Position numbers: made by a program
IMG/VR virus record: IMGVR_UViG_2529292922_000015
DNA from: a virus
Taxonomy: Duplodnaviria; Heunggongvirae; Uroviricota; Caudoviricetes
Strand: one strand, 5' to 3'
Length of the DNA stretch: 25,915 nucleotides
Shown here: piece by piece, positions 17,501 to 20,500 of the stretch
Position numbering within the stretch: the stretch's first letter is position 1
Layout: each line of letters begins with the position of its first letter

Positions 17501-20500
17501 AGGCGACGATGACTATAACGGGCAGAAGGCGTTTGTTGACTCGATTTGCGACTTCAAAAACAAAACAAACTCCCACGTCATTCTCGTTACTCACTCGCGA
17601 AAAGGAGACAGCGAAGAAAAACCAACCGGGAAAATGGACGTAAAAGGCTCTGGAGCGATAACAGACCTGACAGACAACCTTTTCATCATCTGGCGTAACA
17701 AGGCTCGCGAGAGAGCGTTACAGAGAGTTCAGAGTGGTGAAAAGATGTCAGAGAAGGACGAACAGCTACTGGCATCTCCGGCATCTGTTTTGATGCTTGA
17801 AAAACAACGTAACGGCGAAGGTTGGGAAGGTGGTGTCCCGTTGTTCCTTGACGAGCAATCGCACCAGTTCCTGCAACTTGAATCGGGATCGCCATATAGC
17901 TACATCGCCAATATGCCGAAATCGGAATATGACGAGTCGTGGCGACAGGAAAACGTGACGGAGTATTAAATGACCATCTACATCACTGAGCTAATAACAG
18001 GCCTGCTGGTAATCGCAGGCCTTTTTATTTGGGGGAGAGGGAAGTCATGAAAAAACTAACCTTTGAAATTCGATCTCCAGCACATCAGCAGAACGCTATT
18101 CACGCAGTACAGCAAATCCTTCCAGACCCAACCAAACCAATCGTAGTAACCATTCAGGAACGCAACCGCAGCTTAGACCAGAATCGAAAGCTTTGGGCTT
18201 GCCTTGGTGACGTTTCGCGTCAGATTGAATGGCATGGTCGCTGGCTGGATGCAGAAAGCTGGAAGTGTGTGTTTACCGCAGCATTAAAGCAGCAGGACGT
18301 TGTTCCTAACCTTGCCGGGAATGGCTTTGTGGTAATAGGCCAGTCAACCAGCAGGATGCGTGTAAGCGAATTTGCGGAGCTATTAGAGCTTATACAGGCA
18401 TTCGGTACAGAGCGTGGCGTTAAGTGGTCAGACGAAGCGCGACTAGCTCTCGAATGGAAAGCGCGATGGGGAGACAGGGCGGCATGAGACGACAGCGACG
18501 AAGTATCACCGACATCATCTGCGAAAACTGCAAATACCTTCCAACGAAGCGCTCCAGAAATAAACGCAAGCCAATCCCAAAAGAATCTGACGTAAAAACC
18601 TTCAACTACACGGCTCATCTGTGGGATATCCGGTGGCTTAGAGAACGTGCGAGGAAAACAAGGTGATTGACCAAAATCGAAGTTACGAACAAGGAAGTGT
18701 CGAGCGAGCTTTAACGTGCGCTAACTGCGGTCAGAAGCTGCATGTGCTGGAAGTTCACGTGTGTGAGCGTTGTATATATGAATGCTTAAATATGGTGGAA
18801 CATAATGAGAAATATAAGCAACATAGACGAATTAAGAAATAAATTATCATATGATGATGTTTTAGGTGTACTTAGATGGAAAGTGTCTCCTTCTAATAAT
18901 GCTAAGGTTGGCAGTGTTGCTGGTTACATTAGGAGTGATGGTTATAGGATGTTAACTATCGATGGTGTAATTACTTATGCTCACCACGTTATATGGATGA
19001 TAAATAATGGTGAGATTCCATTAGGGTATAAAATTGATCATATAAATGGAGTAAGGTCAGATAATAGGCTATCTAATCTTCGATTGGTTACACACCAACA
19101 GAATGCACAGAACCAAAAGAGAAAAATAACCAATTCGTCAGGAGTGACTGGAGTGTATTTCAATAAAGAGAGATGCAAGTGGATTGCGAATATATGCGTA
19201 GATGGGCGCACCAAATATCTTGGAATATTTGCTAGCATCATTGACGCTATTGCAGAAAGGAAGAGGGCAGAAAAAGAACTGGGTTTTCATGAAAACCATG
19301 GCAGACCATAACTGCGCAGAACTGATGAGCGATCCGAATAGCTCAATGTACGAGGAAGAAGACGATGGTGATTAGCCGATACGGAAAAATAACGTTTAAA
19401 CATTTTCAAGACAATCCAACATGGGCGGCTGCGGCTGGATATGACTTTAATTATTTTGATTGTCTGTCAGTCGCATGTATTGCAACTACCAATGTTGCTA
19501 ACAACATAATCGATGAATTCTTGGATTTTCCAGACTATCAGGTCAGAGAGTTGCCTGCATTTTTTGTGAAAGTATCTGTTGCTACAGCTCTGTTATTTAT
19601 TTTGTTATTCGCATATCCATTGCTTGCCGTATTTGTTTATGTGAGATGCAAGCACTCACAAAATGAATACAGCGGAGAGCATACCGATATTACCAGCCAA
19701 AATATGCGAGTGTGGTTGAGGAGATGCCAAGAGAAATGGGGGAGAAGTCATGGCTAACCTACGCAAAGAAGCGCGCGGAAGAGAATGCCAGGTACGTATT
19801 TACGGCATATGCAATGGAAATCCTGAAACTACAGTTCTGGCACATTACCGGATGGCTGGAATTTGCGGAACGGGAATGAAACCTGACGACCTGATCGGCG
19901 CATGGGCTTGTAGTGACTGCCACGCGGAGATCGACCGACGCACAAGGATTCTCGACAACAAAGACGCCAGACTTTACCACCTCGAAGGCGTGATCAGGAC
20001 GCAGGCGATACTGCTGAAGGAGGGGAAGATTAAGTCATGAACGAATATCAGTTTGTGCTTCCATACCCGCCGTCGGTGAACACCTACTGGCGAAGACGGG
20101 GAAGCCAATACTACATCAGCGATAAAGGCCAGAAATACCGAAAAGACGTTCAGCAAATCATCCGCCAACTTTAGTTAGACATTTTCACCAAATCACGACT
20201 CCGCATCAAAGTCATCGCAGACGTTCCAGACTCCCGCCGCCGCGACCTCGACAACATCCTGAAAGGTTTACTCGACTCCCTTATCCACGCCGGATTTGCG
20301 GAAGACGACGAGCAATTCGATGACATTCGCGTAATTCGTGGTGTGAAAGTACCAGGCGGACGGCTTGGAATAAAAATCACCGAACTGGAGAACGCATGAA
20401 CGCCACAATTCAAACGATACTAGAGCTTCTTATCCAGACACGAGGCAATCAGACCGAAGTGGCGAGGATGCTTTCCTGCGCAAGAGGAACAGTGCTCAAG

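Follow-up and report, generated by a model that had tools for sequence, protein, structure and literature searches.

Free-standing homing endonuclease genes (HEGs) that split a phage protein gene are already documented, and with the mechanism known the conceptual gain from a further case is modest: mobE, a free-standing HNH HEG, lies inside nrdA of Aeromonas phage Aeh1 (Friedrich et al. 2007; PMC2988022), mobA sits in the topoisomerase gene of T4, and seg43 in gene 43 of phage 25 (PMC2988022). SegF and SegG of T4 exemplify 'intronless homing' and marker exclusion (PMC2988022), and the pairing of HNH and AP2 modules is a recognised HEG family, represented in PMC10448857 by the 'IPA-HNH' HEGs of ICP1-like phages. 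Here we analyse a 25,915-nucleotide stretch of viral DNA (the window; IMG/VR record IMGVR_UViG_2529292922_000015), a lambdoid prophage of EPEC E2348/69, in which ninF is interrupted by what is probably a free-standing homing endonuclease gene of the HNH_3/AP2 family (ninF::HNH). Like mobE, mobA and seg43, it is free-standing, has its own translation signals and divides a phage protein gene into two ORFs, with neither intron nor intein and with an uninterrupted gene in related phages; unlike them, it resides in a temperate lambdoid prophage rather than a T4-like lytic phage, its endonuclease is of the HNH_3 type with a predicted AP2-like domain, and the gene it divides, of 57 codons, is accessory and of unknown function rather than one for an essential enzyme. 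In contrast to mobE/nrdA, reassembly of the halves is not required. With SegF and SegG it shares the proposed mode of spread, in which the HEG-less allele would be cut in mixed infection and repair would co-convert nearby markers; those enzymes, however, are of the GIY-YIG type and are encoded between genes, whereas the ninF element encodes an HNH protein within a gene.

Within the nin region, ninE lies to one side of the HNH gene and the ybcO/rusA genes to the other; the locus is composed as follows:

18663-18773, plus strand: 5′ part of ninF, 37 codons from M1 to C37, colinear with intact alleles up to ...GTGTGTGAGC
18663-18842, plus strand: NinF′ ORF as now read (ORF list), 59 aa, overlapping the HNH start
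18768-18773, plus strand: CGT TGT (Arg36-Cys37), a variant seen only with the insert, where intact alleles have CAC TGC, GAT TGC and similar
18774-19312, plus strand: inserted block, 539 nt net, ATATAT...CCATAAC, delimited by junction alignment against six intact ninF alleles
18794-18799, plus strand: putative Shine-Dalgarno sequence GGTGGA, ending 5 nt before the HNH ATG, as read from the sequence
18805-19311, plus strand: HNH_3/AP2-type endonuclease gene, 168 aa, intact, in frame +1 relative to ninF
19313-19375, plus strand: 3′ remnant of ninF, 20 codons (CAELMSDPNSSMYEEEDDGD) followed by a stop codon, shifted to frame +2 with respect to the 5′ part
19365-19757, plus strand: downstream 130-aa gene (PHROG 2638, unknown function), context and not part of the element
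Insertion point in intact CEHC alleles: between GAGCACTGC and TGCGCAG

The initial annotation had described a NinF match of about 36 codons that breaks at an AT-rich block of some 540 bp, with the last 20 codons resuming 1 nt past the endonuclease stop. Alignment with six intact alleles, the check proposed at that time, fixes the junctions at 18773/18774 and 19312/19313 and bears out this outline: the break is real, although the colinear part runs to 37 codons, the block measures 539 nt with a GC content of 0.356 (against 0.48-0.50 in the flanking nin genes), and the HNH stop codon TAA (19309-19311) is followed by a single spacer base at 19312 and then by the ninF remnant. By this alignment, the insertion separates the codon for C37, the last cysteine of the zinc ribbon, from that for C38. 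Both CxxC knuckles of the NinF zinc ribbon (C19/C22 and C34/C37) are contained in the 5′ part, and the ORF at 18663-18842 matches Pfam NinF at 6e-12. The 37 codons differ from the intact alleles compared by H36R, and residue 11, a glycine in the window, is E, Q or G among intact alleles. NinF′ consists of the first 37 NinF residues followed by a 22-residue tail encoded by the insert (IYECLNMVEHNEKYKQHRRIKK), which is found on both N-terminal mosaic types of NinF; RefSeq labels this 59-aa ORF 'protein NinF'. The HNH gene has its own ATG, in a frame unlike that of either ninF part, and GGTGGA is likely its Shine-Dalgarno sequence. The 3′ remnant is identical or nearly so to the C-termini of intact NinF proteins; reading of the junction revealed no start codon or Shine-Dalgarno sequence of its own, and ATGs in frame with it occur at 19290 and 19299, within the 3′ end of the HNH gene. 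The ATG of the downstream gene overlaps the end of ninF, and the same PHROG 2638 gene follows intact ninF in two other loci of our comparison (L011 and L084).

The 168-aa protein matches the full Pfam HNH_3 model (PF13392, positions 2-46 of 46) with an E-value of 1.2e-19 (70.1 bits; cut-off 24.8) and PHROG 99, 'HNH endonuclease', at 3e-70, and its homologues annotated as HNH or homing endonucleases amount to 3,810 phage records. Even the closest phage homologues share only ~50% identity with it and, to go by overlapping annotations in the match table, appear to be separate genes. An AF2 model (pLDDT 88.4) retrieves as its top Foldseek match in the PDB the structure of I-HmuI (1u3e; E 4e-4, probability 1.00), a group I intron-encoded HNH nicking homing endonuclease of Bacillus phage SPO1, to which the protein is 23% identical (phmmer E 0.089). 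Residues D78, H79, N91 and N100 align with D74, H75, N87 and N96 of I-HmuI, which we take to be its catalytic residues, and are conserved across the family: all of 43 homologues have D78 and N91, and at least 90% of them have H79 and N100. They correspond to the Asp-His pair, a structural Asn and a metal-binding Asn of the beta-beta-alpha-metal site. The two enzymes differ in context and in DNA-binding modules, I-HmuI being intron-encoded with NUMOD and helix-turn-helix modules and the ninF protein free-standing with a predicted AP2-like domain. Of the HNH/AP2-type designation in the initial annotation, the HNH part thus holds outright, whereas AP2 stays below the sequence threshold (Pfam AP2, E 0.021; 15.5 bits where 33.3 is the cut-off) and draws its support from the predicted fold: residues 117-159 are modelled as three strands with one helix and match the AP2 domains 7et4, 1gcc and 7wq5 at probabilities of 0.99-1.0, with E-values of only 0.07-0.2. 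Precomputed PF00847 matches are present on several homologues.

An N-terminal region, an HNH_3 nuclease and a predicted C-terminal AP2-like domain, together with the conserved D-H...N...N motif and the abundance of phage homologues, are shared with the HNH-AP2 homing endonuclease family (PHROG 99, PF13392), reportedly described by Magnani et al. in 2004. The clade formed by the window and a diverged copy, L014, is the only one observed inside ninF in the present comparison. In related prophages, at least four further HNH_3/AP2 paralogues and a NUMOD4-HNH gene were seen in the nin region. Terminase-associated HNH proteins of the HK97 gp74 type are defined by a position adjacent to terminase or portal genes, and we rejected this assignment for a gene that lies in the nin region and not beside them. 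Membership of a defence system was likewise set aside, PADLOC returning only its generic 'homing endonuclease' models. A sigma-70 consensus scan of the plus strand of the insert yielded no promoter. A conserved regulatory hairpin at the start of the HNH gene, like that of mobE, was not upheld: the window gives a z-score of -2.4 there (reached by 3 of 200 shuffles), but the L014 counterpart gives only -0.15.

Among 5,426 complete E. coli genomes, 45 carry the insert at 97.8-99.8% identity and always inside ninF, and about 30 further viral or metagenomic contigs carry it with identical junctions. The junctions are the same in all 40 HNH-positive loci fetched, and their recurrence, in these loci and across the 45 E. 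coli genomes, is far beyond chance. Some 2,160 E. coli genomes possess a ninE-ninF region, and in at least 1,659 of these a reconstructed uninterrupted ninF is matched over at least 80% of its length; the insert is therefore rare (~2% of ninF-carrying genomes) and forms a presence/absence polymorphism at one exact ninF site among E. coli prophages. All E. coli matches to the insert lie in a split ninF, intact alleles are continuous, and a bipartite ninF lacking the HNH gene was not found. In INPHARED, 413 records of isolated phages match the flanks and none contains the insert at near or distant sensitivity, and the element has so far been seen only in prophages and viral contigs; close relatives of either HNH lineage were also not found in GTDB species-representative genomes. 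The low frequency of the insert among ninF-carrying genomes suggests that its drive is weak, that it has had few chances to spread or that many alleles resist it. Genome 14EC007 contains both an HNH-positive ninF and an intact CEHC ninF, a coexistence that would be expected if the HNH gene were silent in lysogens. RefSeq already annotates the locus as 'NinF (x2)' plus an HNH endonuclease, and its pseudogene calls in E2348/69, SW07096 and ETEC4091 are annotation artefacts, since the 168-aa ORF is intact in all three. Literature searches for 'ninF' with 'HNH' and for a homing endonuclease in the lambdoid nin region returned no description of the insertion.

The L014 lineage, represented by one 909-bp contig (SRR25288770), carries an 84%-identical HNH copy at the same site in a diverged ninF; it was not found in the complete E. 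coli genomes, and an IMG/VR search returned the E. coli clade only. L014 reads TGT ATA TAT at the insert-linked position and AGGAG at the equivalent of the Shine-Dalgarno spot, and its 3′ junction is shorter by 27 nt, a multiple of 3, so that the two ATGs remain in frame with the ninF remnant. Comparison of the two HNH sequences gives a dN/dS of 0.07 at a dS of ~1.3, a substitution pattern that shows the ORF to be under purifying selection, and polymorphisms within the E. coli clade comprise 17 synonymous and 12 non-synonymous changes. Of 32 distinct insert copies, 30 have kept an undamaged ORF; the two decayed ones bear an IS3 insertion and a frameshift, respectively. The insert shows a diversity of 0.57%, and the stretches of ninF that border it (75 and 55 nt) one of 1.8%; this threefold difference, measured over short flanks, points to a more recent common ancestry of the insert than of its surroundings. 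HNH-positive loci comprise several ninF haplotypes with at least three upstream and at least seven downstream neighbour genes, and beyond ~30-60 nt their flank haplotypes are shared with HNH-negative alleles.

We read these data as a HEG that, on the best interpretation of the sequences, would target the second CxxC knuckle of ninF. Two residues within this knuckle sit exactly at the insertion site and are hypervariable in intact alleles (EH, DH, SD, EA, EY, GH and EAS), whereas the 17 NinF residues preceding them are essentially invariant; CEHC is the knuckle of lambda ninF, and CSDC, CEYC, CEAC and CEASC are other natural variants. CGT TGT is present in 40 of 40 HNH-positive loci, and an empty site with CGTTGT was not found among the 5,426 E. 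coli genomes; TGT does occur in six intact alleles, but after CAC or GAT. In the mechanism that we infer for cleavage specificity, homing and expression, the HNH gene would probably be transcribed with the nin genes from pR upon prophage induction or infection, and its product translated from its own Shine-Dalgarno sequence and ATG. The AP2-like C-terminal domain would then bind the GC-rich intact ninF around the junction of GTGTGTGAGCACTGC and TGCGCAGAACTG, and the HNH (beta-beta-alpha-metal) site would nick or cut nearby in the genome of a co-resident or co-infecting lambdoid phage with an uninterrupted ninF. Recombinational repair off the HEG-bearing allele would copy in the 539-nt block and a few flanking bases, and that allele would resist cutting, since the insertion physically divides its target, which also has the linked CGT TGT change. 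The split may be tolerated because ninF is small and accessory (PHROG 'unknown function'), and the zinc-ribbon half of NinF would still be produced, with a new tail; in lambda, ninF belongs to the dispensable nin region. Several points count against this scheme: many free-standing HEGs cut in a gene adjoining their insertion and not exactly at the insertion site, free exchange among lambdoid phages could by itself bring one insertion next to many neighbours, the insert is rare, and both allele types coexist in 14EC007. The population data are compatible with an enzyme that cuts intact ninF and homes, short of proof.

Several other explanations would account for part of these observations. Many phage HNH endonucleases are intron-encoded, including I-HmuI, the closest solved structure, and a block spliced at the RNA or protein level would restore NinF. 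An Rfam scan of 18400-19700 nevertheless returned no intron RNA at E ≤ 10, and the parts of the insert outside the HNH ORF, 31 nt before it and 1 nt after it, could not accommodate a ribozyme core, which led us to reject a group I intron with an encoded HEG. Against an intein, 5′ ninF, the HNH ORF and 3′ ninF lie in three frames (0, 1 and 2) with stop codons between them (18840-18842 and 19309-19311), and this possibility is excluded. An intron- or intein-encoded endonuclease is thus effectively refuted, and the initial view of a free-standing HNH gene in a simply split ninF stands. Quite improbable, in our judgement, is a functional 'gene in pieces', in which both NinF halves would be translated and reassembled as for Aeh1 NrdA and the HEG would be neutral. 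No recognisable Shine-Dalgarno sequence precedes the ATGs at 19290 and 19299, although these could start a 28-aa or a 25-aa peptide ending in the NinF C-terminus and keep their frame in L014. The N-terminal half does retain its start codon, the coupling to ninE and all four zinc-ribbon cysteines, yet its insert-encoded tails are not conserved between the two lineages, and L014 has lost the first six residues of the remnant (CAELMS), with its HNH ORF crossing the remnant in another frame.

We also consider it unlikely that the insert is a passive relic of one ancient insertion that no longer homes, its varied contexts having arisen as lambdoid phages shuffled their nin modules by ordinary homologous or homeologous recombination, for which the conserved core of ninF would provide a crossover point. 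Such a history would fit the flanks, which turn to unrelated mosaic sequence within ~75-110 nt upstream and ~55 nt downstream, as is typical of lambdoid phages, and indeed free recombination at short segments such as ninF could multiply the neighbours without homing; the rarity of the insert and its two decayed copies point the same way. A functionless relic should decay, however, and the high proportion of intact copies, the low dN/dS over a long divergence and an insert diversity one third that of adjoining ninF, with the more recent common ancestry to which it points, argue otherwise. Strong purifying selection over such divergence at one locus would suit a domesticated nuclease, kept for a benefit to the phage such as exclusion of lambdoid competitors, stimulation of nin recombination or a role in conflicts with defence systems or satellites, with its position in ninF incidental. 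The paralogues in related nin regions would agree with this, as would the phage HEGs with host-beneficial side effects described in PMC10448857 and PMC13096335; against it, the PADLOC matches are limited to generic homing-endonuclease models, and we give it a low probability. Domestication overlaps with the homing explanation in any case, because cutting HEG-less competitors is mechanistically the same as homing. A free-standing HEG in ninF accordingly remains our preferred reading.

Gene-splitting free-standing HEGs have mostly been studied in T4-like lytic phages, and ninF::HNH provides a clean example from a temperate lambdoid phage. It also accounts for the labels 'NinF (x2)' and 'partial HNH pseudogene' that RefSeq gives in E. 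coli genomes, and HEGs may contribute to the mosaicism of the nin region, which holds several other HNH genes. Lambda-type phages are the best-developed genetic system for phage crosses, and dozens of insert-bearing alleles, well over a thousand empty ones and several natural variants of the presumed target exist; because these natural alleles and variants are available, homing, co-conversion tract length and target resistance are testable in lambda crosses. The knuckle could be hypervariable because alleles that resist cleavage are favoured, and the endonuclease could be under purifying selection because co-resident prophages use it as a weapon against one another. That ninF::HNH is an actively homing HEG in an arms race with its target, in E. 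coli and Salmonella lambdoid prophages, is a tentative and rather doubtful proposal; if true, it would offer a tractable lambda-based model of HEG-target co-evolution in temperate phages.

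Comparison of six uninterrupted ninF alleles, lambda's included, with eight loci that carry the insert (the window and seven more) defines the exact junction of the insertion: intact alleles read ...GTTCACGTGTGTGAGCACTGC|TGCGCAGAACTGATGAGC... at the site, whereas the window reads ...GTTCACGTGTGTGAGCGTTGT[ATATAT...CCATAAC]TGCGCAGAACTGATGAGC..., with a net 539 nt between GTTCACGTGTGTGAGCGTTGT and TGCGCAGAACTGATGAGC. The split gene and its surroundings in the window are as follows:

7026-7733, Rad52-family recombinase, the prophage's own
16089-17969, toprim/DnaB-like primase-helicase
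17999-18022, tR2-like terminator
18029-18487, ninB
18484-18666, ninE
between ninE and the 130-aa gene, split ninF with its insert, comprising the next four features
18663-18842, ninF 5' ORF (Pfam NinF, 6e-12)
18774-19312, inserted block, delimited by junction alignment
18805-19311, HNH ORF, 168 aa, the sole long ORF of the insert, with GGTGGA ahead of it
19313-19375, ninF 3' remnant, the last 20 codons (CAELMSDPNSSMYEEEDDGD)
19365-19757, 130-aa gene, function not assigned
19750-20040, ybcO/DUF1364, with rusA next

The initial annotation had described an endonuclease gene splitting ninF, and all elements of that description proved correct against intact alleles, ORFs and reading frames. The AT-rich block of some 540 bp has a GC content of 0.356, against 0.48-0.50 in adjoining nin genes; the HNH ORF ends with a TAA at 19311, followed by a single spacer base, and the 3' ninF codons resume 1 nt past the stop, as claimed. 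The 5' part of ninF, the HNH ORF and the 3' part occupy frames 0, 1 and 2, respectively, and the match to NinF is indeed colinear, extending over 37 codons rather than about 36. We thus find the proposed anatomy supported and the mechanism plausible. An in-frame intein is excluded by the frames and stop codons, and a group I intron was rejected: an Rfam scan of 18400-19700 (E<=10) returned zero matches, and the insert outside the HNH ORF amounts to just 31 nt upstream and 1 nt downstream.

Along a compared 7.3-kb nin-region stretch, the window shares 99.6% identity with a lambdoid prophage in the enteropathogenic strain E. coli O127:H6 E2348/69 (NC_011601, about 735-737 kb), reaching 99.8% over 18400-19700; the E2348/69 genome has three ninE/ninF places. 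At 18902 the window has C (HNH codon 33, Ala), a substitution private to it, since the other 39 fetched copies, the E2348/69 reference included, have T (Val). An IS21-family element occupies 8964-10765 in the early-left region (IstA-like transposase, 340 aa; IstB ATPase, 260 aa), and rusA (20037-20399) contains an in-frame TAG at 20172-20174, with RefSeq, too, listing the gene as a pseudogene that has an internal stop; the two lesions suggest a defective prophage. On the opposite (minus) strand, at 20796-21755, a gene encoding the lipid A deacylase LpxR is flanked by a truncated antiterminator fragment and the full Q gene (22144-22917), and looks like moron-like cargo.

The HNH ORF matches Pfam HNH_3 with 70 bits (cut-off 24.8) and PHROG 99 'HNH endonuclease' at 3e-70; PADLOC returns only generic 'homing endonuclease' models. 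Homologues found by tblastn in 3,810 phage records are at most about 51% identical, many of them annotated as HNH or homing endonucleases. Across an alignment of 43 homologues, D78, N91, L92, R93 and N103 are invariant, and at least 90% of the sequences share H60, H79, D86, N87, R88 and N100. The sole solved relative from sequence search is the homing endonuclease I-HmuI, whose D74/H75/N87/N96, which we take to be its catalytic residues, align opposite D78/H79/N91/N100; the conservation of this quartet among the homologues indicates that the ORF has not lost its catalytic residues. I-HmuI is also the top PDB match (E 4e-4, prob 1.0) of an AlphaFold2 model built from the same alignment (mean pLDDT 88.4). 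In the model, residues ~117-159 form three strands and a helix that match plant and apicomplexan AP2 domains with a probability of about 1.0 at a weak E of 0.07-0.2, and the Pfam AP2 match is under threshold. The 'HNH/AP2-type' label given initially is therefore reasonable, HNH_3 standing at the profile level and AP2 only at the level of the predicted fold. PMC10448857, citing Magnani et al. 2004, treats HNH with a C-terminal AP2 as a recognised architecture of homing endonuclease genes (HEGs). PGAP calls the HNH gene an 'incomplete/partial' pseudogene in several genomes, at NC_011601 735973-736122 and at its counterparts in NZ_CM129859 and NZ_CP122617, yet all 168 codons can be read there without interruption.

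Among 5,426 complete E. coli genomes, about 2,160 have the ninE-ninF region, at least 1,659 of these matching >=80% of a reconstructed uninterrupted ninF, and 45 carry the 539-nt block at 97.8-99.8% identity, always under features annotated as 'protein NinF' and HNH endonuclease. The block is present in 0 of 50,697 deposited phage genomes, and IMG/VR and metagenome scans add about 30 further copies. Left and right junctions are identical in the 40 loci having both anchors; beside them, the left 40 nt show a one-base difference in three loci, and the right 40 nt show one variant base common to nine loci and another in one. The fetched loci collapse to 32 distinct sequences with 21 insert haplotypes, and the HNH ORF is intact in 30, the exceptions being an IS3 element and a +1 frameshift in one sequence each. 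Strain 14EC007 (NZ_CP024131) has a prophage with insert-bearing ninF (H95) and a second with an intact CEHC-form ninF (L012), so that one polylysogen houses both the carrier and its presumed target.

A second, older lineage is represented by L014, a 909-bp Logan contig to which E. coli and phage genomes, IMG/VR and GTDB representatives gave no match. Its HNH gene interrupts a diverged ninF at the equivalent point (...IHVCEKC|IYVLLN...), encodes a protein 84% identical to that of the window (80% in DNA), and is followed by what remains of the ninF C-terminus (DPNGQMLEKDDG) and by ybcO. Between the two endonucleases dN/dS is 0.07 at a dS of about 1.3, and is low in each of three protein regions; polymorphisms within the E. 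coli clade comprise 17 synonymous and 12 non-synonymous changes (pN/pS about 0.19, by our own arithmetic from NG86 site counts rather than as tool output). These values indicate that the protein has been kept functional long-term at one site. A predicted RNA hairpin at 18769-18822 encloses the HNH Shine-Dalgarno (SD) sequence and start codon in the window (-18.7 kcal/mol, z -2.4) and is not reproduced in the L014 counterpart (z -0.15).

The halves of ninF have fared differently. The N-terminal ORF retains its start, the ninE overlap and all four zinc-ribbon cysteines, and gains a 22-residue insert-encoded tail for which L014 has no conserved counterpart. No SD is apparent ahead of the acidic C-terminal 20 codons; two ATGs inside the 3' end of the HNH gene, at 19290 and 19299, share their reading frame (MKTMADHN-CAELMSD...), a frame relationship found in L014 as well. 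In that contig the 3' junction is shorter by 27 nt, without the CAELMS codons for the remnant's first six residues, and the 176-aa HNH ORF crosses the remnant in another frame until its end overlaps the start of ybcO as ATGA. On these sequence features (no evident SD, ATGs buried in the HNH gene, loss and read-across in L014) the 3' piece is best seen as a probable remnant, unlikely to be expressed as a half-gene. In RefSeq, different ORFs of the remnant frame carry the label 'protein NinF'.

The PHROGs entry for the NinF family reads 'unknown function'. In lambda, ninF belongs to the dispensable nin region. In intact NinF proteins the segment TCANCGQKLHVLEVHVC is essentially invariant, whereas the two inner residues of the second CxxC knuckle vary: EH (commonest), DH, SD, EA, EY, GH and an EAS insertion form, SD and EH differing in 6/9 bases of DNA; the 17 residues ahead of them are invariant. 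This hypervariable spot is exactly the insertion site (window 18762-18773 and its equivalents in comparison loci L008-L013 and L084-L086), and its variability may reflect relaxed constraint or selection for cleavage resistance. Furthermore, CGT TGT (Arg-Cys) stands directly left of the block in all insert-bearing alleles, and a 50-nt CGTTGT query for an empty site has zero exact matches in the 5,426 E. coli genomes, recovering only six intact alleles (...CAC/GAT TGT TGC...). The Arg codon is thus inherited solely with the insert, either as part of the mobile segment or so close to it that co-conversion always takes it.

Insert-bearing alleles follow ninE, ninX or another gene and precede at least seven different genes, those identified being ninG, a KilAC/roi antirepressor, a 213-nt ORF, the window's 130-aa gene and a NUMOD4-HNH gene. 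The insert is found with both mosaic types of the NinF N-terminus (MIDQNRSYEQ... and MLSPSQSLQYQK...), and polymorphic sites lying 32 and 36 nt downstream of it and ~60 nt upstream segregate alike in alleles with and without it. The insert shows a pairwise diversity of 0.57%, the abutting ninF (75 nt and 55 nt) one of 1.8%. These sequence patterns fit recent and repeated entry into pre-existing ninF haplotypes, as homing predicts; because the flanks behind the diversity contrast are short and lambdoid recombination is frequent, a single insertion passively shuffled by such recombination remains a rival explanation.

In the mechanism proposed, the HNH gene probably shares the transcript of the nin operon, a sigma-70 consensus scan having detected no promoter of the insert's own, and uses its own SD for translation. 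The enzyme would recognise the GC-rich intact knuckle sequence and nick or cut nearby, recombinational repair off an insert-bearing genome would copy the block with adjacent bases, and the carrier would be protected by its disrupted target.

The closest known cases include free-standing HEGs that likewise split a gene (PMC2988022): mobE in nrdA (phage Aeh1), mobA in the topoisomerase gene of T4 and seg43 in phage 25 gene 43. The 'intronless homing' of T4 Seg enzymes and the HNH-AP2 HEG family also belong among them. Unlike these, the ninF insert resides in a temperate lambdoid prophage, targets a tiny accessory gene and comes with natural population data. A literature search found no published description of the ninF HNH insertion, RefSeq annotating its parts. 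Nin regions of related E. coli prophages hold at least three further HNH_3/AP2 paralogues, 33-39% identical to the window HNH, in the helicase gene/ninB, ninB/dam and ybcO/rusA gaps, and a NUMOD4-HNH gene directly after ninF. The loci concerned, in fetched comparison sequences, are:

L002, 614-1225 and 3601-4125
L003, 660-1187
L009, 1843-2352
L011, 2515-3039

The nin region looks like a HEG hotspot. The split of ninF is real, and gene splitting by HEGs, being already known, would not surprise a specialist; ninF::HNH would make a handy lambda-based test case for HEG homing, co-conversion and target resistance.
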